Numbered from the stretch's first letter, positions 1 through 39,187 are shown. The stretch: DNA of 64,000 nt from a virus (IMGVR_UViG_3300045988_103228:1-64000), one strand, 5' to 3'. Numbers and translations are program-made. Notes: generated by a model not told the origin, from the letters alone.

Positions 1-79
1 GGTAAGACCTCCTGCTTATCTTTGTGAGTTTCAAAATTAGGTATATTATACCCGATTTTCTACTTTTTTTCAAGATGGT

Positions 80-107
80 CTATGCAAATCTCTATAAGTC
101 TATATTT
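80..107. repeat. Direct repeat copy 1 (TCTATGCAAATCTCTRTAAGTCTATAT) beside integrase; candidate arm-type Int binding site or att region
   Basis: 28-nt sequence at 80-107 is repeated at 159-186 with 1-2 mismatches, directly upstream (in gene orientation) of the integrase gene. Confidence 0.5.
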
Positions 108-158
108 ATCGATATTGCGACATTATTTCGAAATCGTTTTTGCCATTCCAAAATGGAC

Positions 159-186
159 TCTATGCAAATCTCTGTAAGTCTATATA
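159..186. repeat. Direct repeat copy 2 of the integrase-proximal 28-mer
   Basis: Near-identical to 80-107. Confidence 0.5.
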
Positions 187-198
187 TCTTTTGAAGAT

Positions 199-222
199 TT
201 GGTGTCAAAATTGGTGTCAAAT
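199..222. repeat. Tandem 12-mer TTGGTGTCAAAA x2 immediately before the int start codon
   Basis: ttggtgtcaaaattggtgtcaaa read directly. Confidence 0.45.
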
Positions 223-224
223 AA

Positions 225-1391
225 TTAGGAAACAATCTTATTAAACTGTTTGATTGCCTCTGCTTCGGTCTCTTCTTTTAAGATATGAGTATACACTTTC
301 AAGGTTATATCGGGCGACGAATGTCCCATAAGGTATTGAACCGATTTAACATCCATCTTGGCTTTGACAAGCCGTGTACAATATTCGTGGCGCATACTAT
401 GGGCAGTGACTTCAGGCAATGGTTCATCATGGCAACTATTATAGGCTTTGATTAGTCCTTCAAAAATTCTAACAAGGTTTTTATTCGTATAGGGCCTTCC
501 AGTTTTTGCTATAAACAAGAAGTCGGCTTGCCCATCTATTATTCTCTCTGCTTTTACAATCGGACGTTGTTTTACCGCTTCTTCAAAAGCAATGATGGCG
601 TCTTTAGATAATGGGATAGTCCTTATCCCACTTTCTGTTTTTGTAGGTGCTAAATACAGCCCGCCGCTCTTTCCATCGTACACCATCTGATGAGATATAG
701 TAACAGTGTTGTTATCAAAATCAAATGACTTTTTTGTTAGCCCGCATAATTCTCCTGCTCGAAGTCCTGTCTCGTGCAAAAGCATCACCATGCCAACATG
801 CCTTTTATATACTCGACTAGATTTCATGAACTTGATCAGATTTTGATACTGCTCTTCTGTTAATATTTCTTTTTCTTTTGAGTCGCATTTGACAACTGTA
901 TTTAATTTAAAAACGAATGGATTTCTAGGAATTATATTCTCATCAAACATTTCTTGAAATGCCGGTCTAGCTAAAGACATGACATCTCTGATTGTTGTAT
1001 AACAATATCCTTCGTTATCCAATTCTCGTGCAAATTGTTTTACATCGCGCACTAAAATATCAGTTGCATTCATTTCCCCAATTAGATGATTCTGAAAGAT
1101 TTTCAAAGTCTGCGATTTTGTTTTATAGCTGCTTGGCCTAATAGTGAGTTTTGTTTCTTCGAGATGTCTTTTTGCTAATTGGTACACTGTGATTTTTGAA
1201 GTAAACGTTGTACCCAAATTAAGTTTTTCTTGGATTTCAGCTTCTTTTTCTCTTAATTCTTTAAGTGAAGTGGCGTATATTATTGAGCGTTTTCCAAGTT
1301 TGTTTGTCCATCTATATTGGTATCTTCCATCCTTTCTCTGGCTCTCGCCGTCTTTTAAAACTTTGCCATTATTATCTTTACGTCTTATCAT
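225..1391 (-). CDS. int: Tyrosine-type site-specific integrase
   Basis: 388 aa. C-terminal box II HSMRHEYCTRLV...LMGHSSPDITLKVYTHI carries the R..H.xR..Y signature. Terminal position next to repeats. Confidence 0.85.
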   Translation of the reverse strand: MIRRKDNNGKVLKDGESQRKDGRYQYRWTNKLGKRSIIYATSLKELREKEAEIQEKLNLGTTFTSKITVYQLAKRHLEETKLTIRPSSYKTKSQTLKIFQNHLIGEMNATDILVRDVKQFARELDNEGYCYTTIRDVMSLARPAFQEMFDENIIPRNPFVFKLNTVVKCDSKEKEILTEEQYQNLIKFMKSSRVYKRHVGMVMLLHETGLRAGELCGLTKKSFDFDNNTVTISHQMVYDGKSGGLYLAPTKTESGIRTIPLSKDAIIAFEEAVKQRPIVKAERIIDGQADFLFIAKTGRPYTNKNLVRIFEGLIKAYNSCHDEPLPEVTAHSMRHEYCTRLVKAKMDVKSVQYLMGHSSPDITLKVYTHILKEETEAEAIKQFNKIVS

Positions 1392-5759: not shown

Positions 5760-6287
5760 TTATTTTCCTTTCTCTTCTGGAGCCCACCAAAGGGTTGGCT
5801 CTTTATATCCAAGACTCCATTTAATATCAATTACTCGTTGGTTCTTGCTTCCCATGTACGGAAGTGAAATATCTTTTTCTGCTTCAATAAAAGGACCATC
5901 TACGAGGACGTTGATGTTAGCAAGAATGTCAGCTACGAGCCCATCCTGATTCCACAATTCTTCCCACTTATATCCAGTCCAGAGCCAAACGTCTTTTTTG
6001 TCCTGAAATTCAGCCCATACACGACGGACGATTTTCTCAACAACTTCTCTGTTCTCAGGATATAGTGGATCTCCACCAGTGAGCGTAAGCCCTTGAATAT
6101 AATCAGGTCGAAGTAAATCTACAATTTTATCAAGCGTTTCATCCGTGAATGGCCGACCACCATTCGGGTCCCATGTGGTAGGATTCTGACAGCCGGGGCA
6201 GTGATGGTCACAACCCTGTACGAACAATGTGACGCGCACCCCTTCGCCATTCGCTATATCACATGGAACGATTTTAGCGTAATTCAT
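5760..6287 (-). CDS. nrdG: Anaerobic ribonucleoside-triphosphate reductase activating protein NrdG (radical SAM)
   Basis: 175 aa. CDHHCPGC is the CxxxCxxC radical-SAM cluster. N-terminal MNYAKIVPCDIANGEGVRVTLFVQGC is typical of NrdG. Confidence 0.8.
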   Translation of the reverse strand: MNYAKIVPCDIANGEGVRVTLFVQGCDHHCPGCQNPTTWDPNGGRPFTDETLDKIVDLLRPDYIQGLTLTGGDPLYPENREVVEKIVRRVWAEFQDKKDVWLWTGYKWEELWNQDGLVADILANINVLVDGPFIEAEKDISLPYMGSKNQRVIDIKWSLGYKEPTLWWAPEEKGK

Positions 6288-7794: not shown

Positions 7795-8238
7795 TCAATC
7801 TACCTTAGTATCCTTATCATCGTCAGCGTCGTTTTCTATATCATCAAAGAATGATTTGTAATCAAACCACTGATCTTTGATGATGTTACCGATGATTTTC
7901 ACATACTCTCCTCTTTTGATAGCTGCACGGATATATTTCCCTTTTAGTGATTCAAGTTCAGAACAATCAACAACATCTAAAATTCTTACGATAGCTTCAG
8001 CTCCGTCTTCATAACCTTCAAAATTTGCGGCATTCCCATCTTTAATAGACTCTCCGTTGATGTAGTATTTTCTACCAATAGAAGGACCCATGTAATTTAC
8101 TCCCCATCCATCACCTTCTAAAGTGAGTGTAAGAGAAAGCCATCCGTAATCTTTTATTCCAAAAGATACATTTTTAATGTATGCGTTTCTTAGCTCGTAT
8201 CCATTGGCTTCAAGAAGATCTTTTGTCCATTTCTTCAT
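7795..8238 (-). CDS. Hypothetical protein, tandem paralog A
   Basis: 147 aa. N-terminal M(K/N)KWTK and C-terminal K(I)IGNIIKDQWFDY(K/E)SFF are shared with 8265..8681. Confidence 0.55.
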   Translation of the reverse strand: MKKWTKDLLEANGYELRNAYIKNVSFGIKDYGWLSLTLTLEGDGWGVNYMGPSIGRKYYINGESIKDGNAANFEGYEDGAEAIVRILDVVDCSELESLKGKYIRAAIKRGEYVKIIGNIIKDQWFDYKSFFDDIENDADDDKDTKVD

Positions 8239-8264: not shown

Positions 8265-8681
8265 TTATAAAGCTGGCGTTTCACTTATTTCTTGTTTTTT
8301 CTCGTAATCTTCAAAGAAAGATTCATAATCAAACCACTGGTCTTTAATTATATTGCCGATGATTTTAATGGAACTTCCCCAGCCTTTCGATGCAACGCGA
8401 ATGTACATATTCTTCATATGAGTAAATTCACTACATCCAACAACGTCCATGATTCGCATGATGGATTCCATGCCAGCGGCAGAGCCCTCAAACTTCTTAG
8501 CTCCTAGATATCCTTTTCCAAGCACATATCCACCATAACAGGCTCCCCATCCACCGCCGTCAAGAGTAAGACCAGAAGTCAAAACCCCATGGTCTTCCAT
8601 GTTAAGAGAAACATTCGTGATACGAGCGTTCTCAATTTTATATCCAGCAGCCTCAAGAGAATTTTTAGTCCACTTATTCAT
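8265..8681 (-). CDS. Hypothetical protein, tandem paralog B
   Basis: 138 aa. Diverged copy of 7795..8238 with the same C-terminal block. Confidence 0.55.
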   Translation of the reverse strand: MNKWTKNSLEAAGYKIENARITNVSLNMEDHGVLTSGLTLDGGGWGACYGGYVLGKGYLGAKKFEGSAAGMESIMRIMDVVGCSEFTHMKNMYIRVASKGWGSSIKIIGNIIKDQWFDYESFFEDYEKKQEISETPAL

Positions 8682-8903: not shown

Positions 8904-9107
8904 TTATTCTACTTCCTCGTAGGTTTCCTCAAAGATATCCGGCTTACATGGATAAATTTCTCCACTCGCGCCACGGATGATGTAATCACCATAGTTAGCG
9001 TGCATAACGCCTTCCAACGTTTCGATATCCGCATTGGTATCTGGAATATGAACAAATCCGCTACTAGACCCATGAAAAGTAACTGTTCCGTTTGTCACCT
9101 TATCCAT
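8904..9107 (-). CDS. Hypothetical protein
   Basis: 67-aa ORF. Confidence 0.35.
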   Translation of the reverse strand: MDKVTNGTVTFHGSSSGFVHIPDTNADIETLEGVMHANYGDYIIRGASGEIYPCKPDIFEETYEEVE

Positions 9108-9181
9108 AAACTAGTCAGGAATATAGTCAATTCCAAGCTGAAATGCTTCAATTACAACCGGTCTCTTACGATACTGTCCCA

Positions 9182-9376
9182 TTACTTTCGATTTCCTTTC
9201 AAGAATCCTTCAATCAAAATAAGCACCAGCCAAATGCCTGTCGCAACTTTGATATTAAAATTCAAACTGAATAGCTGATAAATAACCCAGATGAGTGCAG
9301 TGGAGATTGCCCACAACACAAAGTAGTTTGCTGCAAACACAAGGATTGCTCCTAGAATATTCTTAAATGAGTTCAA
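9182..9376 (-). CDS. Hypothetical small membrane protein (2 predicted TM helices)
   Basis: 64 aa, strongly hydrophobic. Confidence 0.4.
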   Translation of the reverse strand: MNSFKNILGAILVFAANYFVLWAISTALIWVIYQLFSLNFNIKVATGIWLVLILIEGFLKGNRK

Positions 9377-9600
9377 ACCATCACCTCCGGCTTATCCTCT
9401 TCAATATGAACATGAGCTACTTGCACAATATCATGGTCACTCATTAGATATGAGTGTCCATCTTTTAAGCAAACAGCAGTGACCCCATTTAAATCTTCGC
9501 ATGGTTGCAATTTAATAAACAGATCTCCACCCCAATAAAACGCTTCGCCAATTCCAATGCGTTTGAAGAATGTGTCACCAGAATTTTTAAGAATTTTCAT
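9373..9600 (-). CDS. Hypothetical protein
   Basis: 75 aa, 4-nt overlap with neighbours. Confidence 0.4.
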   Translation of the reverse strand: MKILKNSGDTFFKRIGIGEAFYWGGDLFIKLQPCEDLNGVTAVCLKDGHSYLMSDHDIVQVAHVHIEEDKPEVMV

Positions 9601-9601
9601 T

Positions 9602-9877
9602 TTATAGCTCCTCTTTGATGCACTGATTAGTCAGCTTTTCATATACATCCTCGTAAAGCTCCTGCTTGTCGCCGTTGTAGGTATACTCTGCATAGATGCC
9701 GTCACCGCTAATGGTGGTGGACAGCAGAGCCTTATAGTTCTGGAGAGTTTTGCAGCTCCAGACCACAAAAACGTTTTCCAGCGTAATTTCATCGGACGTA
9801 TGCTCATAGTACCACTTGACAAGAGCATTCTTACAAACACTTTCGAAGTGAGCCATACCTGTAATAATCATAATCAA
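9602..9877 (-). CDS. Hypothetical protein
   Basis: 91-aa ORF. Confidence 0.4.
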   Translation of the reverse strand: MIMIITGMAHFESVCKNALVKWYYEHTSDEITLENVFVVWSCKTLQNYKALLSTTISGDGIYAEYTYNGDKQELYEDVYEKLTNQCIKEEL

Positions 9878-10365
9878 GTCTCCTTTTTGAATATAACCGT
9901 AATCCAGTTATCTGGATAATCATCTTCTTCCTTTGTTGTTTTCACATATCCGGGCATTTCAAAATTCCACGCAAGATAATTTAGAATTTCAAGGTTGTGT
10001 AAATCGCAATAATACCCGTCCCATGGTCTACTCCATTCCGACCAATGAAGAAGATATGCATTATCACGGCAAGTAAGATAAAAACTATTGTCCAAAGTAC
10101 ACACGCTGCACACTTTTGGAAACGCATATCTTAGGATACGGTCAGTTCGCTTATCGCTCCACTTATTCAACTTCTTGCGACGGAACCTCTCTGCGACAAC
10201 AAAGAGTCTCTCAAGCCAGTAGATAATGATAAGAATCGGATACAGAAACCAATAAGGTGTTTTAATGTTCATGTCCTTGTAATGATAGTATTTTGTGACC
10301 TTGGTTTCTTTCTTCTTTTCTTCTTGCAGCTTCTTACTAAGTCTGTCCATATTTAATCCCACCAA
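9874..10365 (-). CDS. Hypothetical membrane protein
   Basis: 163 aa. TM segment YWFLYPILIIIYWL plus a Cys cluster. Confidence 0.45.
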   Translation of the reverse strand: MVGLNMDRLSKKLQEEKKKETKVTKYYHYKDMNIKTPYWFLYPILIIIYWLERLFVVAERFRRKKLNKWSDKRTDRILRYAFPKVCSVCTLDNSFYLTCRDNAYLLHWSEWSRPWDGYYCDLHNLEILNYLAWNFEMPGYVKTTKEEDDYPDNWITVIFKKET

Positions 10366-10400
10366 CCCACCCTGCTTTTATTCCATCAATAAGATGCTAC

Positions 10401-11252
10401 TTACTCACCCTTAGTTACAACGGTGTCAGCACCCTGTACAGTTACCCAGCCATGCTTCAAACGTGCCTCTGCTTCCTTCATCTGAATTAGTTCAGGAGTG
10501 ATGGACTCGGAAAGTACCTTATTTGCATCAGCCTCAGCCTGTGCCTCAATCATCTTAACGTCAGCTTCCGTCTGAGCCTTGACCTTATCAGTTTCGGCCT
10601 GAGCCAGAGCGGTCTGCTTATTCAACTCAGCAATCTCTGCGTCCTGCTTGGCCTGCTCCTTGGCACGAATCTTCTGCATCAGGGTATCATCCGGCTGTGC
10701 ATCAACAATCAGAGCGGAAGAGACATTGATACCGTATTCGGCGGTCAGCTTCTCATTCAGGTAATTGGTAATTGCAGTATTCACACCTGCTCGATCATCA
10801 GAGTAAATCTGCATGACACTAAACTGAGGAGTCACTTCCTTGACATAAGCAATAATGTCATTCTGAATCTTGCTCTCCATAAGGCTCTCGCCGTCCATGC
10901 CACCAAACTTGGTATACAGCTCAACGACATGCTCAGGCAGGAAATTATAGTTTACAGTCAGATTGATTGCAATCGTACCGCCATTTGCAGGAGCGTCAAT
11001 ATGCCAGTCTGCGTGCTCCTTTGCACCGTAATCAGATGCTGCATTAGAGAATACCACACGCTGCTGAGTGATCGGGAACTCAGACACATGCTTCAATGGG
11101 CTCATAAAGTGCCAGCCCTGAGAAATAGTCTGCTGCTCAACACCCTTAGCAGAATATACAACACCTACATAACCGGTATGTACCCGCTCAGTACACAGCA
11201 ATACACATACTGCCATAATAAACGCACCAATAATGGCTCCAAACTTTTTCAT
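10401..11252 (-). CDS. SPFH/band-7 (prohibitin/HflC-like) membrane protein
   Basis: 283 aa. N-terminal signal/TM segment, an SPFH core, and an EA-rich coiled-coil tail (AEIAELNKQTALAQAETDKVKAQTEADVKMIEAQAEADA). Confidence 0.65.
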   Translation of the reverse strand: MKKFGAIIGAFIMAVCVLLCTERVHTGYVGVVYSAKGVEQQTISQGWHFMSPLKHVSEFPITQQRVVFSNAASDYGAKEHADWHIDAPANGGTIAINLTVNYNFLPEHVVELYTKFGGMDGESLMESKIQNDIIAYVKEVTPQFSVMQIYSDDRAGVNTAITNYLNEKLTAEYGINVSSALIVDAQPDDTLMQKIRAKEQAKQDAEIAELNKQTALAQAETDKVKAQTEADVKMIEAQAEADANKVLSESITPELIQMKEAEARLKHGWVTVQGADTVVTKGE

Positions 11253-11262
11253 ATAGTTCTCC

Positions 11263-11337
11263 TTATTTAAAATTGTCTTTTAAGATGTAGTAGGAAATCG
11301 CCCACACAATCAAAAAGAAAATCACGATTTCTCGCAT
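11263..11337 (-). CDS. Putative 24-aa hydrophobic peptide upstream of the SPFH gene
   Basis: Hand-translated MREIVIFFLIVWAISYYILKDNFK. RBS-like ATAAGGAG follows for the SPFH gene. Confidence 0.2.
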   Translation of the reverse strand: MREIVIFFLIVWAISYYILKDNFK

Positions 11338-11362
11338 TTTACTATCCCGTCTTATACTTTAT

Positions 11363-13540
11363 TTAGTTGTCGCTCAGATGAACTACTCGATCTCGAATTT
11401 CCTGAGTGCGCCCCTGATTCCAAAAATTGGTTCCCAGGTAACCGCAGGTACGTCTTACGACATTCATTTTGTTCTGGTCACGATTACCACAATTCGGGCA
11501 CTCCCATACAAGCTTGTGGTTTTTCTCATCTTCTACAATTTTAATTTCGCCGTCGTAACCACAGCACTGGCAGTAGTCGGACTTGGTGTTCAGCTCCGCA
11601 TACATGATGTTGTCGTAAATGAACTGCATAACACTAAGCACCGCAGGAATGTTCTGCTGCAGATTTGGCACCTCGATATAGCTAATCGCTCCTCCGGGAG
11701 AAAGCTTCTGGAACTCGCTCTCAAACTTTAGCTTAGTGAAAGCATCGATATGTTCACGGACAACGACATGATAAGAATTTGTTACGTAGTCAGGGTCAGT
11801 AACATCTGGAATCATACCGAACCGCTTCTGCAAGCAACGTGCAAATTCATATGTAGTGGACTCCAAAGGAGTACCATACAGGGAGTAATCGATGTTTTCA
11901 GCGGCCTTCCACTCGTTACACTTATCATTCATGTGCTGCATAATTTCGAGAGCGAAAGGTTTAGCATCAGGATCGGTGTGGCTCTTGCCGGTCATATACT
12001 TCACACACTCATACAGACCGGCATAGCCCAGGCTGATGGTGGAATAGCCGCCGAAGAGCAACTTGTCGATCTTCTCGCCCTTCTTTAGACGAGCTAATGC
12101 ACCGTATTGCCACAGGATAGGGGCCATATCAGAAGGAGTGCCGAGTAGACGCTTGTGACGAATCTGTAGAGCTCGATGACACAATTCGAGTCGTTCATCG
12201 AAGATTTTCCAGAATTTATCTTTGTCCCTTTTTGAACTGCAAGCCACATCTACCAGATTGATAGTTACCACACCCTGGTTAAAGCGGCCATAATACTTAT
12301 GCCCCTTAACCCAATTCTTGGCATTAGCTACGTTCTCAGTGGTGCGGTCAGGAGTAAGGAAGGATCTACAGCCCATGCTAGGCCACACACCGCCTTTAAG
12401 CTCCTTCATAACCTTTGCGGAAATATAATCAGGAACCATTCGCTTGGCAGTACACTTAGCCGCCAGCTCAGTCAGGTAATAATACTTAGAATCAGGATGA
12501 ATGTTATCCTCATCAAGAGCATAAATGAGCTTCGGAAATGCTGGAGTAACCCATGCACCAACCTCATTCTTTACACCCTGAATACGCTGCTTTAAAACCT
12601 CTTCGATAATCATTGCAAGGTCGTCACGAGTCTGACCTTCAGGAACCTCATCCAGATACATAAACACGGTAATGAATGGAGCCTGACCGTTGGTTGTCAT
12701 CAGGGTGACCACCTGATACTGGATGGTCTGCACGCCCTTTTCGACTTCTTTATGTAAACGCTTTTTAACAATTTCGGTTTTACGTTCTGCCGAAATATTA
12801 AGCCCTTCCAGCTCTTCATCAACTTCTTTTATAATCTTCTTGCGAGAGACATCCACAAAGGGTGCCAAATGAGAAAGCGTAATGCTTTGGCCTCCAAATT
12901 GAGAAGAGGCCACCTGTGCGATGATCTGGGTCGCAATGTTGCAGGCAGTAGAGAAGCTGTGCGGCTTCTCGATATAGGTGCCGGAGATGACGGTGCCGTT
13001 CTGCAGCATATCCTCCAGATTCACCAGATCGCAGTTGTGAATATGCATCACGAAATAATCTCGATCATGCACATGAAGAATACCCTCTTTATTTGCTTCT
13101 CGAATGTCATCAGACAGAAGGAGACGGTCAGTAAGTTCCTTTGAAACCTCGCCAGCCATATAATCTCGCTGTGTACTGTTAATAGTAGGATTCTTATTGC
13201 TATTCTCTTCGTTGATTGCGTCGTTCTGTGCATCAAGGATTTCAAGGATACTTGCATTCGTCTTTTCCTTATCCCGAATCTCCTGTCGCAACTTACGCCA
13301 ATGGCTATAAGCCTCTGCCACATCTGCGAGTGGACTATTATTCAGCTGATCCACCACAATATCCTGAATCTGCTCAACAGACATCGTGTCCGGCATATCT
13401 GCAATATAGTCAGCAATCGCATTCGACACACGAGAGTCAATACCGCCGGGTGTATTGGTCATCGCCTTCTCAATTGCATTTACAATCTTTGACTTGTCAA
13501 AAGGAACTTTCGTTCCGTTTCGTTTAATCACATAATCCAT
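11363..13540 (-). CDS. nrdD: Anaerobic ribonucleoside-triphosphate reductase NrdD (class III RNR)
   Basis: 725 aa. N-terminal ATP-cone MDYVIKRNGTKVPFDKSKI. C-terminal Zn site CCGYDGE...CPNCG. Glycyl-radical motif RRTCGYLG. Confidence 0.9.
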   Translation of the reverse strand: MDYVIKRNGTKVPFDKSKIVNAIEKAMTNTPGGIDSRVSNAIADYIADMPDTMSVEQIQDIVVDQLNNSPLADVAEAYSHWRKLRQEIRDKEKTNASILEILDAQNDAINEENSNKNPTINSTQRDYMAGEVSKELTDRLLLSDDIREANKEGILHVHDRDYFVMHIHNCDLVNLEDMLQNGTVISGTYIEKPHSFSTACNIATQIIAQVASSQFGGQSITLSHLAPFVDVSRKKIIKEVDEELEGLNISAERKTEIVKKRLHKEVEKGVQTIQYQVVTLMTTNGQAPFITVFMYLDEVPEGQTRDDLAMIIEEVLKQRIQGVKNEVGAWVTPAFPKLIYALDEDNIHPDSKYYYLTELAAKCTAKRMVPDYISAKVMKELKGGVWPSMGCRSFLTPDRTTENVANAKNWVKGHKYYGRFNQGVVTINLVDVACSSKRDKDKFWKIFDERLELCHRALQIRHKRLLGTPSDMAPILWQYGALARLKKGEKIDKLLFGGYSTISLGYAGLYECVKYMTGKSHTDPDAKPFALEIMQHMNDKCNEWKAAENIDYSLYGTPLESTTYEFARCLQKRFGMIPDVTDPDYVTNSYHVVVREHIDAFTKLKFESEFQKLSPGGAISYIEVPNLQQNIPAVLSVMQFIYDNIMYAELNTKSDYCQCCGYDGEIKIVEDEKNHKLVWECPNCGNRDQNKMNVVRRTCGYLGTNFWNQGRTQEIRDRVVHLSDN

Positions 13541-13552
13541 GTGATTCCTCCT

Positions 13553-15076
13553 TTACTCAACGTTCTGTGCGTTGTTATTCTCGGAAGTGATAGTAGAATC
13601 ACTTACAAGATTTACATTCTTAGTAACCTTGGCATCGTAACTGTTGGCACGTACAATCTCTCGCATATCAATGCCAGTGGCTTCCTTAACAGCCTCAAAA
13701 GTCTGTGCCATGACCGCCGGGACATTCCCAGAAATCTCAGAAACGCCATTTGCGTTACCGCCGATAATGGAAACCTTATCAATAGATGCCAGAGGCTTTG
13801 CAACCTGTTCTGCGATACTAGGCAGAATTTTAATGATCATCTCGCCCATTGCAGCACCGTTATACTGTTTGTAAGCCTCAGCCTTCTTCAGCATAGCCTC
13901 TGCTTCGGCAATACCCTTCTGCTTGATAGCATCTGCTTCAGCAGTACCAACCATTCGGATACCTTCAGCTTCCTGCTCCTTAGCAAACTTGGCAGACTCG
14001 GCAGCACGCTCTGCCTCGTACTTCTTTGCCTCAGCTTCCTTTTGACGCTTATACAGGTCTGCATCAGCCTGTTTGCGAATTTCAGCGTCCAACTTCTGCT
14101 GACGAACCTCTGCTTCCTGAGCGGCCAGTTCAACCATCTTCTTCTGTTTTGCAATCTCTGCATCAGCCTCAGCTTCCTTGATTTCCTTGGCACGAAGATT
14201 CATCTGAATCTGACCAGCAGCTTCAGCATCAGCGGTCGCCTTGTCAGCTTTAGTCTTCAGAGCAGCCTGTGCCAGGACGAACTCATTGTTGCGTTGCGCA
14301 ATAGCAGTCTTAGATTCAATTTCCTTCTCGTTTGCTTCGCGAGTAGTATCAGCCTTAGCGCGAGCAATATCACGAGCTGCTTCAGCCTTAGCAATCTCTG
14401 CCTGCTTCTTCACCAACTCTTCCTGCTGAACACCAATTGCCTCGATGACACCATGATTATGGCCCTGAGCATCAATAGCATCCTTGATATCCTGAACATT
14501 GAAAGTAACAACTTCCAGACCCATCTTTGCCAGATCAGGACGAGCATTCTCAACAACGGAAATTGCCATCTGCTTACGATTGGTCAGGATATCGTTGACA
14601 GTCATCTCAGAAACAATCTCTCGCAGATTGCCCTGAAGGACATCGTTAATCTTCTCGTTAATGCCATCTTCACTCATGCCAAGGAAGTTGGAAATAGCAG
14701 CCTGCTGACGAGCACTAATGTAAGTCTTTGCATCCTCGCAACCGGCGCTCTTAATCTCATCATCAGTTACAGTAGAGTTTTCAGAGTAAACCTGAACAGT
14801 AACAACAGAGTCCAGCCACAGAGAAACACCCTCTTTAGTCTTGACACCGGTTTCAGGAGTCTTGACATCAATCTTGAGCAGTCGCATATTCAGACGGTCA
14901 GCTCGCTGAATAACCGGAAGGACGAACACGCCACGACCACAGATAACTTTCGGCTTAGACAGTCCAAAACCTGTTACGACAATTGCCTGAGTAGGAGGAG
15001 CCTTCTTGTAGCAAGTAAATGCAAAGGCGACCAGAAGAACAATAACGACAGGAATTGCAATAAACATCATATTCAT
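13553..15076 (-). CDS. Flotillin-like SPFH protein (FloT/YuaG homolog)
   Basis: 507 aa. N-terminal TM, an SPFH domain (VVTGFGLSKPKVICGRGVFVLPVIQRADRLNMR), a long EA/K-rich coiled coil, and the FloT-like C-terminus IIKILPSIAEQVAKPLASIDKVSIIGG. Confidence 0.75.
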   Translation of the reverse strand: MNMMFIAIPVVIVLLVAFAFTCYKKAPPTQAIVVTGFGLSKPKVICGRGVFVLPVIQRADRLNMRLLKIDVKTPETGVKTKEGVSLWLDSVVTVQVYSENSTVTDDEIKSAGCEDAKTYISARQQAAISNFLGMSEDGINEKINDVLQGNLREIVSEMTVNDILTNRKQMAISVVENARPDLAKMGLEVVTFNVQDIKDAIDAQGHNHGVIEAIGVQQEELVKKQAEIAKAEAARDIARAKADTTREANEKEIESKTAIAQRNNEFVLAQAALKTKADKATADAEAAGQIQMNLRAKEIKEAEADAEIAKQKKMVELAAQEAEVRQQKLDAEIRKQADADLYKRQKEAEAKKYEAERAAESAKFAKEQEAEGIRMVGTAEADAIKQKGIAEAEAMLKKAEAYKQYNGAAMGEMIIKILPSIAEQVAKPLASIDKVSIIGGNANGVSEISGNVPAVMAQTFEAVKEATGIDMREIVRANSYDAKVTKNVNLVSDSTITSENNNAQNVE

Positions 15077-15092
15077 GTATTTTTCTCCTTGA

Positions 15093-15182
15093 TTATCTTA
15101 AAACAAATTTGGCAAAGCCAAAAAACAACATTGTAACAAACAGGGCGAATGCCACAAATGGTTCTTCCCAGTTGTATCTCAT
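15093..15182 (-). CDS. Putative 29-aa hydrophobic peptide
   Basis: Hand-translated MRYNWEEPFVAFALFVTMLFFGFAKFVLR, between the FloT-like and DUF3310 genes. Confidence 0.2.
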   Translation of the reverse strand: MRYNWEEPFVAFALFVTMLFFGFAKFVLR

Positions 15183-15195
15183 ATATGTAAATCCT

Positions 15196-15294
15196 TTACC
15201 AATGAAAAATTCTAACCATTATCTCTACTATTGCACCAGCTATAAAGAACATCGCTGACGCTAAAAGATAATTCCAATCGTCGTTTTTTCTCAT
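15196..15294 (-). CDS. Putative 32-aa hydrophobic peptide
   Basis: Hand-translated MRKNDDWNYLLASAMFFIAGAIVEIMVRIFHW. Its ATG overlaps the stop of the upstream gene (TAATG). Confidence 0.2.
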   Translation of the reverse strand: MRKNDDWNYLLASAMFFIAGAIVEIMVRIFHW

Positions 15295-15734
15295 TAAAAC
15301 TTAACCTCATCGGCGCAATCAGGAACCACGGCAGTTTCGATGTTTGGAGCATGGATTTCTGGACGGAAAACCAAATCATCCGTATAGTCAGGCTTTGCAT
15401 GACGAGGAATGTAATCCGACATCGTAGTCAGCTCATCAGTCACCTCGTTAGGAATCTTCTTTAGCGTATCTACGACACTTTCAGCAACCTTCTGCTGTTC
15501 CTCTAAAAGCCGGATTTTATAGTCCAAATACCAACGTGCCTTCGTCAAATCTTGAAGCTGAGAATTGCCATCTTTATGCCCTGCCCTGCTTAGATACTTA
15601 CCAACATTCCAAAGATAAGCATCCTTGTCCAGCTGCCACTCACGTAGCACTTTGATGGCCTCATAGGGATTGTCTGCACCGCCGTAATGGACTGGATGGT
15701 CTACGTTCTTCTTAATTTCGTCAAGTGTTTCCAT
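15294..15734 (-). CDS. DUF3310-family phage protein
   Basis: 146 aa. HPVHYGGADNPYEAIKV...NVGKYLSRAGHK...DLTKARWYLDY matches the conserved HY...NAxKY...DLxKAxWY pattern of this phage family. Confidence 0.55.
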   Translation of the reverse strand: METLDEIKKNVDHPVHYGGADNPYEAIKVLREWQLDKDAYLWNVGKYLSRAGHKDGNSQLQDLTKARWYLDYKIRLLEEQQKVAESVVDTLKKIPNEVTDELTTMSDYIPRHAKPDYTDDLVFRPEIHAPNIETAVVPDCADEVKF

Positions 15735-16512
15735 TTAATGCCTCCTGTTTCAGTTTGTCGTATTTATCACGAATCTCGTGGAACTTACCACAAGACATCA
15801 TACCTTCAGTACAACCGTTACCACAGCAGTTGGGGCCAGCACACTTAAACAGATGAGGAGCAATCGGATAGACAAGCTTTAGCATCTCAGTTGCAAGTTC
15901 CCTGATTTCAGACTGTGCACGTTCACAGCAACGCAGATTAAAGAAATTATTCAACGAACGAGCGTTCATTGTAACAATCATCTTTGTAGAACAAGCATTT
16001 GGAAGAACAGAACGTGCATTCTCATTTGCAATCTTGGATGCTTTTGCGCGTGCTTTTTTCTCAGTCAAACGAGAATCAGCAACCATCAGTTCCTCAGTAA
16101 TCTTGTCCTCAAGAATCTGACATAGATGCTTATAGGAATATTCAGCAGTCTGAATTGCCTGTTCAAACACTTCTCGTGCTTCGCTATCATCATCAATAAC
16201 GTCAGGGACGATGATCTCTGCATTGTCCATTCGCACATAGCGCTGACTCTGCACACTGAACGATGCAATGCGATGCCTGGTAATTTGAGCAAGCAAAGAC
16301 CGGCTCACACCTTCAATTCCAAAAGTAAAAGTCACATGCTCCGTAGGACTAGCGTGACCAAGGCTAGAAAGCCGATTCAGAAACTCATCGACCTTCTCAT
16401 CGGTCAGTCCATCCATCAGATCCTGAATACTCGAATTGGAGTAACACAGTTTTGCGGCTGCAGCTACTACCTTTTCAGGGTCAGGAGTATTTGTAATCAG
16501 TTTAACTACCAT
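15721..16512 (-). CDS. thyX: Flavin-dependent thymidylate synthase ThyX
   Basis: 263 aa. ThyX signature RHRIASFSVQSQRY (RHRxxSxxxxSxRY). Confidence 0.85.
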   Translation of the reverse strand: MVVKLITNTPDPEKVVAAAAKLCYSNSSIQDLMDGLTDEKVDEFLNRLSSLGHASPTEHVTFTFGIEGVSRSLLAQITRHRIASFSVQSQRYVRMDNAEIIVPDVIDDDSEAREVFEQAIQTAEYSYKHLCQILEDKITEELMVADSRLTEKKARAKASKIANENARSVLPNACSTKMIVTMNARSLNNFFNLRCCERAQSEIRELATEMLKLVYPIAPHLFKCAGPNCCGNGCTEGMMSCGKFHEIRDKYDKLKQEALNGNT

Positions 16513-16522
16513 TCAACTCTCC

Positions 16523-16747
16523 TTAATATTCGTCCTGCCAGTTTTCAGGAATATCATTCTCATCAATTACGATACAATTCCTGGGTGCAACATTCGTTGT
16601 GTACTTTCCGTTTTGAACTTTAATCATTACATTCATAATTGAGACAACTTTATGAATGCTCCAAAGAACTCCCGTACTCTTGTATGTTCTTGCCCGAAGA
16701 ACCGTATCACCAACATGAATCTCTCTATTAAGAATATCGGTTACCAT
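16523..16747 (-). CDS. Hypothetical protein
   Basis: 74-aa ORF. Confidence 0.4.
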   Translation of the reverse strand: MVTDILNREIHVGDTVLRARTYKSTGVLWSIHKVVSIMNVMIKVQNGKYTTNVAPRNCIVIDENDIPENWQDEY

Positions 16748-16923
16748 TTAATCCTCCTTTATTTTAGAAGTGCAAATTTAAACCAATCTGGGAAGTTGGA
16801 TACTGAAATCCCATACTTGATAAGGCAAGACAGCAGCCACAACGCAATCATGATTCCGACCGCAATAAGATAATCCTTAAAAATCTTAATGAACGCGATC
16901 CACATCTTAATCCTGTCTCTCAC

Positions 16924-17208
16924 TTACCTCACCTCTTTATCCCACTCATCTCTGCGTTTTAAAGCAACAAGATAATTATGTTCAGTTGTTACAACACAAT
17001 CATCTGCTTCCCGGTAAATAAGTTCGCCACGTTGTTCAATCGGATACCATCGTTCGAAATAAACTATATCTTTTTGATGATTATCCTTTTCGATTTTTTC
17101 GACCCTTACAGCCGAAATCATTGCAAAATAAGGGAGGCCAGATGGAACCTCTGCAATCAACACATAATCTCCAACACTAAATGAATTCCCGTATTGGTCA
17201 ACTGCCAC
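16924..17208 (-). CDS. Hypothetical protein
   Basis: 94-aa ORF. Confidence 0.4.
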   Translation of the reverse strand: MAVDQYGNSFSVGDYVLIAEVPSGLPYFAMISAVRVEKIEKDNHQKDIVYFERWYPIEQRGELIYREADDCVVTTEHNYLVALKRRDEWDKEVR

Positions 17209-37083: not shown

Positions 37084-37189
37084 AAACTTTAAAAATGAGC
37101 AAAAAATAATAGACGTATTAACGTCATATTATTCATTCGCTTATAAAACAAAAGTTCTAGCGGGGTTTATGTATGCCCTTTCAGGCTGG

Positions 37190-37263
37190 TGGGACAGGAG
37201 AGATTTGAACTCCCGACCAAGCGGTTATGAGCCGCCAGCTCTGACCAACTGAGCTACTATCCC
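37190..37263 (-). tRNA. tRNA-Met(CAT): tRNA-Met/fMet (anticodon CAT)
   Basis: Hand-folded GGGATAG/CTGTCCC acceptor, D-arm GCTCAGTTGGTCAGAGC, anticodon loop CTCATAA, T-arm GGGAGTTCAAATCTCTC, CCA encoded. Confidence 0.7.
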
Positions 37264-37292
37264 ATGCAAACGCCGACTTTCATCGGCGTGAT

Positions 37293-37360
37293 GCCAGTGA
37301 AGGAATCGAACCTTATCTCTCGGTGTTTCCGAGCGCTTTTACCATTAAGCTATCCAGCCG
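37293..37360 (-). ncRNA. Degenerate tRNA-like element (possible pseudo-tRNA)
   Basis: Canonical D-arm TAGCTTAATGGTAAAAGC and T-arm AAGGTTCGATTCCTT. The anticodon arm CTCGG-AAACA-CCGAG has only a 5-nt loop, and the 5' and 3' acceptor strands do not pair. Confidence 0.3.
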
Positions 37361-37493
37361 TATACCTCAGAATTTAATTCTCACTATCCAAGCTATGTCG
37401 CGTTCCAATATGATCACTCTTGACAACCATGTCGTAACATATAGGTTTCTTTCGGCTCTGAGTAACCGGTGCAGCGTAAGGGGCTGCGTGTGG

Positions 37494-37566
37494 AGCGACT
37501 GACGGGGTATGATCCCGCAACATTCAGATTGGAAATCTGACGCTCTGCCAATTGAACTACAGTCGC
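37494..37566 (-). tRNA. tRNA-Gly(TCC): tRNA-Gly (anticodon TCC)
   Basis: Acceptor GCGACTG/CAGTCGC, anticodon arm TCAGA-TTTCCAA-TCTGA, unusual T-loop ATCATAC, CCA encoded. Confidence 0.6.
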
Positions 37567-37675
37567 ATAATCACCCAGCTTGCAAAGCACTACTGCACCA
37601 TCACTGGCGAGCTGGGAATAATAGTGGTAATCAAAGGAGATCAACAAACGGTACGCAACCATAAGTTGATAATGG

Positions 37676-37761
37676 TGGACACGACCCGATTTGAACGGGC
37701 ACACCGCTGTTAACGGCAAAAGAGCCTAAATCTTTCATGTCTGCGATTCCATCACGTGTCC
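37676..37761 (-). tRNA. tRNA-Leu(TAG): tRNA-Leu (anticodon TAG), class II
   Basis: Acceptor GGACACG/CGTGTCC, anticodon arm AAAGA-TTTAGGC-TCTTT, long variable arm, T-arm GCCCGTTCAAATCGGGT, CCA encoded. Confidence 0.6.
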
Positions 37762-37766
37762 ATAAA

Positions 37767-37856
37767 TTGAGGGTGTCGGGATCGAACCGACGATCGGCTA
37801 TAAAGCACGCTGTCTGGGTCAAAGCCAGATGCCATTTACCACTTGGTGAACCCTCA
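37767..37856 (-). tRNA. tRNA with anticodon TTG (nominally Gln) but a class-II-like 21-nt variable region; identity uncertain
   Basis: Perfect 7-bp acceptor TGAGGGT/ACCCTCA. Anticodon arm TCTGG-CTTTGAC-CCAGA. T-arm GTCGGTTCGATCCCGAC. Discriminator A, no encoded CCA. Confidence 0.45.
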
Positions 37857-37955
37857 TTATGTAACTTGGCTTGCTGCGTCCTACTGCTCCGTTTTTTTGG
37901 AGAGCCAAGAATAATAGGAAGGTATTCATGAAAAGCAAGTGGAATACTCCACTGG

Positions 37956-38026
37956 TCCAAAATGTCGAATTCGAATCGCTCTTCTGCGTCCCAAACGCAG
38001 CGTGCTGCCATTACACTACATTTTGG
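37956..38026 (-). tRNA. tRNA-Pro(TGG): tRNA-Pro (anticodon TGG)
   Basis: Anticodon arm CTGCG-TTTGGGA-CGCAG. 8-bp complementarity at the termini CCAAAATG/CATTTTGG. Weak T-stem around TTCGAAT. CCA encoded. Confidence 0.5.
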
Positions 38027-38032
38027 ATATGG

Positions 38033-38117
38033 TGCCGCAGGTGGGATTCAAACCCACGATCCGTGTTTCAGGCGTCCCGGTTTAAGCGGGAAATGTATGT
38101 CACTCCATCACTGCGGC
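38033..38117 (-). tRNA. tRNA-Leu(TAA): tRNA-Leu (anticodon TAA), class II
   Basis: Acceptor GCCGCAG/CTGCGGC, anticodon arm TCCCG-CTTAAAC-CGGGA, T-arm GTGGGTTTGAATCCCAC, CCA encoded. Confidence 0.65.
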
Positions 38118-38159
38118 ATATACAGAAGCTGTATAAAATACAGCTTCATTCTTTTGAAA

Positions 38160-38756
38160 TTATTCTTTGCTAGTATTGTTTATATCGGATCTTCTATAAG
38201 GCAGTCCATAGTATTTACACCACTTACGAATAGAAGTTCCTGTTACACCATACTTTTCTCCAACTTTAGAAAATGACATAACACGGATATCTTTTTCAAG
38301 CTGACTTCTTTCTGGCAACCCTTTAGATCTTCTGTATGGAAGACTATAAAGACATTCTTTGCATAGTGTCCCTTTTGTTCTTGGACTCAATTCTTTCCAA
38401 CATTTTGCGCAAGATTTTGTCTCGCGCTTTTTGCGTTCGTTCTTTCCTTTTTGTATTGTTTCTTTCTTCGGGAACTTGATTTCATTTTCAAGCATAAGTT
38501 CTCGTGCTTTTTCATACCAGCTTTTAGCTATGTAATTTATTCCCACTTTTCCTAACGCCTCACCAATAGACTTCGATGTTTTAAGCGCCTTTACAAACTC
38601 TTCATCGGATACAGCTCTATGTCTCTTAATATTTCTCCCGCAATAATTTTCTGTTTGTGAATGACAATTAGGACACAGTAGCTTGAGATTTGATAACTCA
38701 TTATTCAGCCTATCTCCATCAATATGATGAACTTCTAACGAAATTTCCTTTCCCAT
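38160..38756 (-). CDS. HNH homing endonuclease with a C-terminal HTH DNA-binding region
   Basis: 198 aa. N-terminal HNH motif LEVHHIDGDRLNN...NLKLLCPNCH. C-terminal HTH-like KVGEKYGVTGTSIRKWCKYYGL. Adjacent to the tRNA cluster, as with seg/HNH genes in T4-like tRNA regions. Confidence 0.75.
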   Translation of the reverse strand: MGKEISLEVHHIDGDRLNNELSNLKLLCPNCHSQTENYCGRNIKRHRAVSDEEFVKALKTSKSIGEALGKVGINYIAKSWYEKARELMLENEIKFPKKETIQKGKNERKKRETKSCAKCWKELSPRTKGTLCKECLYSLPYRRSKGLPERSQLEKDIRVMSFSKVGEKYGVTGTSIRKWCKYYGLPYRRSDINNTSKE

Positions 38757-38873
38757 CTATTCCTTGTTTCCACAGCATTCACATTTATGTTCTCTTATGA
38801 GTAAGAGCGATTCTCTTAACCCTTTGAATGGAACGCCCTGTTTAAATCTTGTCAAATCAATATTACCTTTATT

Positions 38874-39056
38874 CTAACCTTGTCCCGTAAAATAAGAAGT
38901 GTCAATATTATTTTCGTCTGCATATGTTTGGATTACATCCCTAGAGCTTCCTCCGAATTTGCTGTAACCAAGTTTCTCAGCCACAGTAGCCCAGTTGTTG
39001 CTCTCTTTAAAAATCTGCTCGATCTCTTCTTTTGAAAATTTTTCAATTCTTTTCAT
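38874..39056 (-). CDS. Small HTH-like protein (possible homing-endonuclease DNA-binding-domain remnant)
   Basis: 60 aa. SNNWATVAEKLGYSKFGGSSRDVI resembles NUMOD/HTH modules of homing endonucleases. Confidence 0.3.
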   Translation of the reverse strand: MKRIEKFSKEEIEQIFKESNNWATVAEKLGYSKFGGSSRDVIQTYADENNIDTSYFTGQG

Positions 39057-39090
39057 GAACTTGCCTCCAGTATTTAATAGGTGAATATTC

Positions 39091-39177
39091 GGACTCTGGT
39101 GCCCAAGGCGGTATTCGAAACCGCACGCGATATCTCACGCAAAGCTGTTTGGGAGCTTCATGTCTACCTCATTCCAT
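39091..39177 (-). tRNA. tRNA-Leu(CAA): tRNA-Leu (anticodon CAA), class II, with C at position 33
   Basis: Acceptor GCCCAAG/CTTGGGC. Anticodon arm AAGCT-CCCAAAC-AGCTT. Canonical T-arm GCGGTTTCGAATACCGC. CCA encoded. Lies inside the spurious plus-strand ORF 39081..39299. Confidence 0.55.
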
Positions 39178-39187
39178 CACTTGGGCA

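Follow-up and report, generated by a model that had tools for sequence, protein, structure and literature searches.

Introduction

SPFH scaffolds are ubiquitous, and their function is poorly understood. The closest described bacterial systems are the flotillin FloT (YuaG) of Bacillus subtilis, the HflK/HflC-FtsH complex and the SPFH-NfeD operons (YuaF-FloT, YqeZ-FloA, YbbJ-QmcA, YqiJ-YqiK), where a small membrane gene lies immediately upstream of the SPFH gene and is translationally linked to it. In two reports on B. subtilis, SPFH proteins are described as tying PspA to the membrane via small membrane proteins (PMC8581546; bioRxiv 10.64898/2026.02.06.704340). The reason for the presence of SPFH genes in phages has been stated to be unclear (PMC13239085); in Kayvirus, the membrane-protein genes mbpV and mbpS were noted as neighbours, and a Sec-related role was speculated (PMC7150955). 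Here, I report the analysis of two SPFH genes in IMGVR_UViG_3300045988_103228:1-64000, a stretch of 64,000 nucleotides (hereafter referred to as the window) from a temperate, integrase-bearing prophage of ∼125–140 kb in a Faecalibacterium-like bacterium. One gene encodes a flotillin and the other a prohibitin-like protein of the phage family phrog_200 (hereafter SPFH2), and they form two independent, swappable cassettes beside nrdD, the gene for the anaerobic ribonucleotide reductase.

Two independent variable sites beside nrdD

Every gene of the window is encoded on the minus strand. Those that define the two sites are listed here.

10401–11252, minus strand: SPFH2, prohibitin-like, 283 amino acids (aa), with an N-terminus made of MKK and a transmembrane (TM) segment, an SPFH domain and a coiled coil; cargo of site B
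11263–11337, minus strand: pepA, a single-pass membrane microprotein of 24 aa, upstream of SPFH2, whose stop codon overlaps the SPFH2 ribosome-binding site (RBS)
11363–13540, minus strand: NrdD anaerobic ribonucleotide reductase (Pfam NRDD, ATP-cone and Gly_radical), conserved and separating site A from site B
13553–15076, minus strand: flotillin, 507 aa, with an N-terminal hydrophobic anchor, an SPFH domain, an EA-rich coiled coil and a flotillin C-terminal region; cargo of site A
15093–15182, minus strand: pepB, a single-pass membrane microprotein of 29 aa (MRYNWEEPF...), 16 nt upstream of the flotillin gene
15294–15734, minus strand: DUF3310 protein (Pfam PF11753, PHROG 'nucleotide kinase' families), the kept left flank of site A

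As the original prediction had it, the two SPFH genes flank nrdD. I compared 80 nrdD-anchored relatives of this locus. In 61 of them, the DUF3310 flank is present and the sequence extends far enough in either direction for the state of each site to be read.

Site A (DUF3310 gene to nrdD), LemA (phrog_1383, PF04011) with a 258-aa two-TM protein (phrog_3886): 33/61 loci
Site A, 30-aa microprotein only: 15/61 loci
Site A, microprotein with flotillin: 13/61 loci
Site B (after nrdD), pepA with SPFH2: 42/61 loci

All states of site A are identical through ATGAGATACAACTGG, a segment that covers the RBS and codons one to five (MRYNW), and differ from there on; pepB, lemA and the 30-aa microprotein gene thus have this start in common, and the end of the shared segment looks like a recombination boundary.

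The flotillin and SPFH2 had been proposed to act as one system, and their distribution among the relatives speaks against this. The two are found together less often than expected, SPFH2 being present in 4/13 loci with a flotillin and in 38/48 without (odds ratio 0.12, Fisher p 0.0017, uncorrected for shared ancestry). Their N-termini also differ: that of the flotillin is uncharged and hydrophobic and is followed by YKK, as in FloT, while SPFH2 starts with MKK and the TM segment, as in HflK/C and prohibitin. Each site has its own alternative states, the association is negative and the predicted membrane faces are opposite, which speaks against a cooperating pair; these are two independent cassettes that are swapped separately on either side of nrdD.

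A further combination, of LemA, p268 and flotillin, occurs in L031/L245, outside the set of 61; the nrdD of this relative, probably intein-bearing, is not among the nrdD-anchored loci. The adjacency of LemA, a phrog_3886-type protein (p25x) and flotillin is thereby seen in two divergent elements, L031/L245 and L001 (identity of 52–53% for LemA and 39% for p25x), a hint that these membrane modules are functionally linked. In L001 (6158–9560, GCA_027682645.1), the arrangement is operon-like, with LemA, a 254-aa phrog_3886 protein, a 120-aa TM protein and the flotillin in this order. The L001 protein is also found in Clostridium sp. TM06-18, and the region, possibly phage DNA and of 43% GC, is rich in genes without known families and includes a PBECR5 nuclease. 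The longer nrdD of L031 (9536–12610, 1024 aa), found also in L110, L111 and L148, carries an insert after the HDxDYF motif, which is probably an intein.

Identity and origin of the flotillin

Profile searches with PF01145 place an SPFH domain in both large proteins. For the 507-aa protein, Band_7 (PF01145) is matched with E 2.7e-19 (70.3 bits, for a gathering score of 23.6) and Flot (PF15975) with 32.5 bits (cut-off 27), and residues 27–489 are collinear with residues 6–434 of human flotillin-1 (E 1.6e-48, PDB 9l3g/9bq2). A single hydrophobic segment is present, at residues 1–19. The predicted architecture of an N-terminal hydrophobic segment, SPFH domain, EA-rich coiled coil and Flot C-terminus is upheld. 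The protein scores 259.4 bits against the FloT equivalog NF058507 (NCBIfam) and does not reach its cut-off of 700 bits; it is a flotillin, not filed as a FloT orthologue. An open reading frame (ORF) of 531 aa on the plus strand, 13541–15136, is not a gene but an antisense shadow of the flotillin, arising from the codons of its EA-rich repeats.

Outside the phage clade, the closest kin share 76–79% identity and include the chromosomal flotillins of Gemmiger formicilis and Subdoligranulum variabile, which are flanked by thiamine-synthesis, ABC-transporter and MatE genes and are not directly preceded by an NfeD-like or a small hydrophobic ORF. Further relatives in the same range are proteins named Gemmiger sp. 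In a neighbour-joining tree, the phage flotillins constitute one clade, sister to a bacterial (Oscillospiraceae) subfamily. Within this clade, synonymous polymorphism (pS) reaches 0.30–0.46, with a ratio of non-synonymous to synonymous polymorphism (pN/pS) of 0.05–0.08, compared with 0.10 for the bacterial copies. The phage flotillin is therefore under strong purifying selection, and is as constrained as its bacterial counterparts.

From the tree and the divergence, I infer a single capture from bacteria, which would not be recent. The direction, from bacteria to phage, is probable because flotillins are common in bacteria and rare in phages: relatives were identified by tblastn in 10 of 50,697 GenBank phage records, at least one of which is probably host contamination. 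These records include some labelled as Enterococcus and Listeria phages. The candidate set aside as contamination is the flotillin of Enterococcus phage Efs 1-1-1, whose neighbours on the two sides are ABC transporter and FtsX genes. A group of 'viral' contigs (L036–L054) carries flotillins of 76–78% identity flanked by TnpB, VWA and Y-family polymerase genes, and may be phage or bacterial.

SPFH2 belongs to a known phage family

The 283-aa protein had been described as an SPFH protein with an N-terminal TM segment, related to prohibitin and HflC, and it is indeed a prohibitin-like SPFH protein. SPFH2 matches Band_7 with E 7.5e-24 (Pfam) and phrog_200 over its full length (residues 1–280, E 7.7e-54), and its TM segment is predicted at residues 1–19. 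A profile of the SPFH2 family searched against PDB sequences detects prohibitin (2.9e-27), erlin (4e-18) and HflK/C (1e-9), followed by stomatin and flotillin, prohibitin being the closest. Relatives of SPFH2 occur in 504 phage records, with 28–43% identity to annotated members, and a C-terminal motif, SITPELIxMKEAEARLKHGWV, is conserved. The names given to SPFH2 in databases are 'HflC' and 'high frequency of lysogenization C', while members of phrog_200 are annotated as 'lipoprotein', 'prohibitin family' or 'HflC/HflK'. The pN/pS of SPFH2 is 0.11–0.33.

The presence of an SPFH gene in a replication and nucleotide-metabolism region had been regarded as unusual. It is in fact typical, as phrog_200 genes are commonly found among such genes in phages. 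In Bacillus phage Thrax3, the prohibitin-family gene lies between gyrA and a ribonucleotide reductase gene; in Brevibacillus phage Sundance, the phrog_200 gene is beside those for thymidylate synthase and dihydrofolate reductase; and in Clostridium phage Amboise, it is located between an exonuclease gene and RNA ligase/DnaE.

A small membrane protein is paired with the phage SPFH gene

Every one of the 42 loci with SPFH2 contains pepA, and pepA is found in no locus without SPFH2. Its length is 24–25 aa across relatives, with many synonymous variants and a pooled pN/pS of 0.13; homologues of 24–28 aa precede SPFH2 homologues of only 58–75% identity. Because of this strict linkage and of the pN/pS value, pepA is a real gene, an obligate partner located upstream of SPFH2.

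This pairing extends beyond the close relatives. Using the same permissive start rules for SPFH and control genes, complemented by inspection, I counted small TM ORFs in 80 IMG/VR loci with SPFH genes. Such an ORF, coding for a single-pass protein, lies directly against the SPFH gene in 8/8 clusters that are at least 33% identical to SPFH2 and in 0/9 more distant ones, while for control genes of the same loci the count is 3/44 (p 8e-4). Among GenBank phages, the phrog_200 gene likewise has a small ORF with an N-terminal TM segment directly beside it in Amboise (59 aa), Sundance (51 aa), phiST1 (58 aa), phi127 (101 aa) and Thrax3 (25 aa). In phi3396, no small TM ORF abuts the phrog_200 gene, and in Magritte a 65-aa TM ORF is found just downstream of it instead. 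The Thrax3 ORF, MMYYVTMFVILSAVAWVVSGRFIKK, is hydrophobic and unannotated, and lies in the interval that separates gyrA from the prohibitin-family gene (vB_BanS-Thrax3, ON548419.1; ∼1050–1130 of L149). No description of an SPFH gene and a mini-protein gene as a conserved module was found, the Kayvirus paper giving neighbour genes only (PMC7150955); the pairing of SPFH2 with a microprotein thus seems to be undescribed in this sense, and is the part of this analysis most worth pursuing.

The remaining small genes of the region are as follows.

15196–15294, minus strand: pepC, a hydrophobic ORF of 32 aa with a GAGG RBS, whose start overlaps the stop codon of the DUF3310 gene (TAATG)
9874–10350, minus strand: single-TM protein of 158 aa, with the ATG at 10350

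Of the three hydrophobic peptides that had been singled out, pepA and pepB proved to be real, conserved genes, and pepC to be variable. The microprotein pepB is present in nearly all flotillin-bearing relatives. A second allele of 30 aa, MRYNWEYPLVALMLLAMIMTFWFSKVVLGI, with 50–59% identity, occupies site A in 15 relatives that lack flotillin, and it retains the length, hydrophobic core and conserved ends of the first. A comparison of the two alleles gives a pN/pS of 0.36, and the value inside allele 2 is about 0.2. I had suspected pepB to be a non-coding remnant of lemA, from ∼4 synonymous to 11 non-synonymous changes in allele 1 and from two frameshifted copies, but dropped this reading because of the values obtained between the alleles and within allele 2; pepB is a real microprotein. 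It was also considered as a flotillin-specific partner, which is refuted by its homologous allele at the same site without flotillin. As for pepC, it occurs in 1/80 nrdD-anchored relatives, with an identical copy in L053/L125 only; a divergent allele of 28 aa (MRNENDTYLIF...) with the same TAATG coupling is found in L030, L031, L075 and L092. It is a variable accessory ORF that is plausibly a gene.

The neighbouring membrane protein had been given as 163 aa. One TM segment is indeed predicted, but the start is more likely the ATG at 10350, which gives 158 aa and is the call made in L065, than the TTG at 10365 that would yield 163 aa. No Pfam, PHROG or PADLOC family was matched. A search of 1.8 billion proteins yielded only 21 clusters related to it, and it is present or absent independently of SPFH2 in the nrdD-anchored relatives. 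An NfeD-like partner had also been envisaged for the SPFH proteins; the ORFs upstream of them are 24–32 aa long, the 158-aa neighbour has no Pfam match, and no NfeD was identified in the flanking genes scanned.

Flotillins in other phage lineages

In IMG/VR, 395 stretches match the flotillin, which is rarer than phrog_200 yet recurrent in phages: at least four distinct lineages of large gut phages carry such a gene. No publication dealing with phage flotillins was identified. A second lineage, represented by L284 (1486–7186, IMGVR_UViG_3300045988_122383) and ∼24 contigs of 142–166 kb, shows the order PRPP synthetase, NAMPT, NAD synthetase, a 110-aa protein, flotillin (38–39% identity) and a 244-aa TM coiled-coil protein. 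Another consists of MT835492-like phages. In phage csAssE-Sib, the flotillin is annotated as such; its gene is part of the replication module and lies behind that of a 164-aa protein with N-terminal TM segments that appears NfeD-like by eye and has no Pfam match.

The prophage and its host

The original prediction held the region to be phage-encoded rather than host-derived, and this is confirmed by its replication genes, its tRNAs, the integrase at its end and a gene order common to >80 IMG/VR contigs, the longer of which are mostly 120–150 kb. The gene set of the window comprises a DnaE-type polymerase, a RecJ-like nuclease, a primase, a DnaB-like helicase, a ligase, a Pnkp/RNA ligase, an integrase and 7 tRNAs. 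Two features delimit the segment that contains the cassettes.

225–1391, minus strand: tyrosine integrase with a Tn916-type DNA-binding domain (Pfam Phage_integrase and Integrase_DNA), at the prophage end
5760–6287, minus strand: NrdG activase (Pfam Fer4_12 and Radical_SAM), at the far end of the variable stretch after nrdD

The distance between nrdG and nrdD differs among relatives. Upstream of the flotillin/SPFH2 region are thyX and the DUF3310 gene, and downstream are nrdG, dUTPase/dCTP deaminase, methylase, folD, xis and integrase genes.

The exact integrase protein is found on contigs L065–L068, where host genes begin 224 bp further on, in the order carboxyltransferase, gmk, def, fmt and rsmB. 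These are of 63% GC, compared with ∼40% for the phage part. Bases 1–230 of the window correspond to the same prophage/host junction, and host genes start only beyond base 1. The host is taken to be Faecalibacterium-like because its Fmt shares 85% of residues with proteins named Faecalibacterium prausnitzii and because of the 63% GC. Human gut metagenomes contain this prophage very frequently: 210 contigs carry the exact flotillin, and 714 the exact SPFH2.

Several further observations were made on this element. The stretch between integrase and host gene (window 1–224) is near-identical to L065 11161–11392, with one mismatch; it contains two direct repeats, ATATAGACTTA(C/T)AGAGATTTGCATAGA, which may be integrase arm sites, and a TATAAT-like box directly before the RBS of the host carboxyltransferase gene. 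Tandem paralogues of 147 and 138 aa are encoded at 7795–8238 and 8265–8681 (minus strand), both with the end ...IIGNIIKDQWFDY.SFF; the product of 7795–8238, the one scanned, has no Pfam family. In L059, L061 and L063 (3147–4322), an IS110-family transposase gene is inserted, in the opposite orientation, into the group of small ORFs that precedes thyX. The seven tRNA genes (window 37187–39186) adjoin that of a 736-aa polynucleotide kinase-phosphatase/RNA ligase (phrog_8238; 39256–41466), a pair of the type used for the repair of cleaved tRNAs. Finally, thyX (window 15721–16512) exists as two alleles, of 263 and 238 aa and with ∼34% mutual identity, in relatives L069–L148. Because these are swapped among otherwise near-identical prophages, cassette exchange is general in this phage group.

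Possible roles of the cassettes

The remodelling of the host membrane by the phage SPFH proteins, an idea already present in the original prediction, is a reasonable candidate. The explanation that I favour, if tentatively, is that two independent accessory membrane-scaffold cassettes reside in the nucleotide-metabolism operon of a temperate prophage, and encode lytic-phase scaffolds that would keep the membrane functional. The two sites on either side of nrdD would be recombination-prone. Cassette A consists of the 29-aa microprotein and a flotillin probably captured once from an Oscillospiraceae subfamily; by homology to 9l3g/9bq2, this flotillin, held by its N-terminal hydrophobic anchor, may form flotillin-type domes on the cytoplasmic face. 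Cassette B consists of the 24-aa microprotein and the phrog_200 (MbpS/Phb1) SPFH protein, whose charged N-terminus and TM segment are predicted to act as a type-II anchor and to place an SPFH ring on the outer face, the arrangement of HflK/C and prohibitin. Both would be made during lytic development together with the genes for dNTP supply. Up to the point of programmed lysis, the scaffolds may maintain the fluidity, energisation and integrity of the host membrane and confine small membrane partners; the cassettes would be conditionally useful fitness factors, exchangeable with the cassette of LemA and phrog_3886. What the sequences show is the identity of the genes, their place in a phage, the host-lineage origin, selection, the make-up of the cassettes and the linkage of SPFH gene and microprotein, while topology, oligomeric cages, expression timing and physiological role are inferred.

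Production in the lytic phase is probable because the cassettes are tightly packed, with no gaps, among thyX, nrdD and nrdG. The intervals are 12–16 nt, nrdD starting 12 nt past the flotillin stop codon, and there is the TAATG overlap. Promoter-like sites number 22, against 14.1 in shuffled sequences (sd 3.7), ∼2 sd above and all weak; terminator-like sites are at shuffle level only, and Rfam gave no match in 9000–17000.

A number of points weigh against this explanation. The membrane-maintenance role is proposed by analogy, from the tie between SPFH proteins, PspA and small membrane proteins in B. subtilis and from a weakly PspA-like protein encoded beside the flotillin of the L284 lineage. 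The positive-inside rule is the sole basis on which the topology suggests a cytoplasmic SPFH domain for the flotillin and an outer-face one for SPFH2, and a single-sequence AlphaFold2 model of SPFH2 (pLDDT 47) was unfit for fold search. The microprotein alone at site A in some loci indicates that the cargo is dispensable. The latter, of 244 aa, matches PspA_IM30 end to end but weakly (E 0.015, below threshold) and has no match among PDB sequences; it is the TM coiled-coil protein of that lineage. Lastly, the turnover of membrane proteins at such hot spots suits cargo for exclusion or defence equally well.

A broader proposal, possible but doubtful, starts from the pairing described above. A prohibitin-like SPFH gene and an abutting gene for a single-pass mini-protein (24–100 aa) may be an unrecognised two-gene module of Firmicutes phages, in which an outer-face cage would control a small membrane effector, as a counterpart of the SPFH-NfeD and HflKC-client pairs. 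With the neighbouring swaps of flotillin, LemA and microproteins, these sites may be hot spots for host membrane integrity, through exclusion, counter-defence or lysis timing.

Exclusion or defence in its own right, with SPFH cages and mini-proteins blocking the entry of phage DNA or blunting membrane-targeting abortive-infection effectors, is unlikely. Unrelated membrane cassettes come, go and swap at fixed sites between conserved genes, SPFH2 is predicted on the outer face and the phage is temperate; in Salmonella phage PhiSH19, the SPFH gene adjoins an annotated superinfection exclusion gene, and in the L284 lineage the flotillin follows NAD-salvage genes, which can act in counter-defence. 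However, PADLOC-DB v2 gave no match for the flotillin, SPFH2, the 163-aa ORF, DUF3310 or DUF6275, and the cassettes are operonic with lytic nucleotide-metabolism genes instead of being stand-alone morons with their own promoter and terminator. In addition, the flotillin sequence stays host-like and strongly constrained, and the same SPFH family is present in strictly virulent phages.

It is improbable that pepA and SPFH2 act as HflK/C does, with a cage on a host membrane protease (e.g., FtsH) that tunes the turnover of membrane proteins or of phage regulators of the lysis-lysogeny choice. The SPFH2 profile does match HflK/HflC, and prohibitin, whose complexes partner m-AAA proteases; the database names point the same way, the gene is located between transcription regulators in temperate Streptococcus phages, and the present prophage is itself temperate. 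Small peptides such as lambda CIII and SpoVM modulate FtsH. Nevertheless, virulent phages of Staphylococcus and Bacillus, which make no lysogeny decision, are where the family is most abundant, the prohibitin match is much better than that to HflK/C, and no protease gene is linked.

Lysis timing, whereby the single-pass protein would be holin- or antiholin-like and sequestered by the SPFH cage until the right time, appears quite improbable as well. It draws on Kayvirus, where MbpV (102 aa, with an N-terminal TM segment and a charged tail, 'resembles holins') and MbpS are encoded between the endolysin gene lysK and tgl (PMC7150955), and many of the partner mini-proteins possess a similar N-terminal TM segment and charged tail. 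Here and in Thrax3, Sundance and Amboise, however, the pair is found among replication and nucleotide genes, distant from those for lysis, and the 24-aa pepA is almost tailless.

That the flotillin and SPFH2 cooperate in one microdomain-remodelling system, e.g., for the anchoring of replication complexes, is very improbable: both are SPFH scaffolds encoded 2.3 kb apart in a co-directional cluster with replication genes, and the csAssE-Sib flotillin is also in a replication module, but their negative association, the alternative states of each cassette, their opposite predicted topologies and their different origins, host-type for the flotillin and phrog_200 for SPFH2, all argue against it.

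Comparison with known systems

Overall, this locus is not one new system, but a host-derived flotillin and a member of a known phage SPFH family in swappable cassettes. Phage SPFH genes are compact, dispensable and naturally swapped, each with a minimal partner, and they make the question of what an SPFH cage encloses, and why, directly testable. The host is kin to Faecalibacterium, a keystone commensal, and effects on membrane physiology, phage sensitivity and lysis could matter for gut ecology.

The prophage flotillin has the same domain order as bacterial FloT and the cage of human flotillin-1/2. It differs from FloT in being encoded inside a dNTP-synthesis operon, and from the YuaF-FloT pair in that a 29-aa microprotein, and no NfeD (YuaF-type) gene, is found upstream. 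The likeness to the SPFH-NfeD operons in general is one of arrangement, since the small membrane gene is likewise immediately upstream and translationally linked; the products in the prophage are 24–32 aa long, without an NfeD OB-fold domain or any match in Pfam. The cassette of LemA and phrog_3886 occupies exactly the same DUF3310/nrdD site as pepB and the flotillin, but is of unrelated fold and family and is absent from the window.

SPFH2 shares its N-terminal anchor and C-terminal KHGWV motif with the phrog_200 proteins MbpS of Kayvirus and Phb1 of Streptococcus phage phi3396. It differs from other members in being an accessory cassette, carried by roughly two of every three close relatives, and in having a partner of only 24–25 aa. 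In the HflK/HflC-FtsH complex, type-II anchored SPFH proteins form an extracytoplasmic ring; SPFH2 is predicted to be anchored alike, and its profile detects both HflK and HflC, but there is one SPFH gene instead of a K/C pair, and prohibitin scores far better. In the B. subtilis PspA-YdjG/H-YdjI (SamGHI) system, small membrane proteins recruit an SPFH protein in membrane stress, and YdjI/SamI is described as cytosolic and recruited (PMC8581546; bioRxiv 10.64898/2026.02.06.704340). SPFH2, in contrast, possesses its own anchor, and the window contains no PspA gene.

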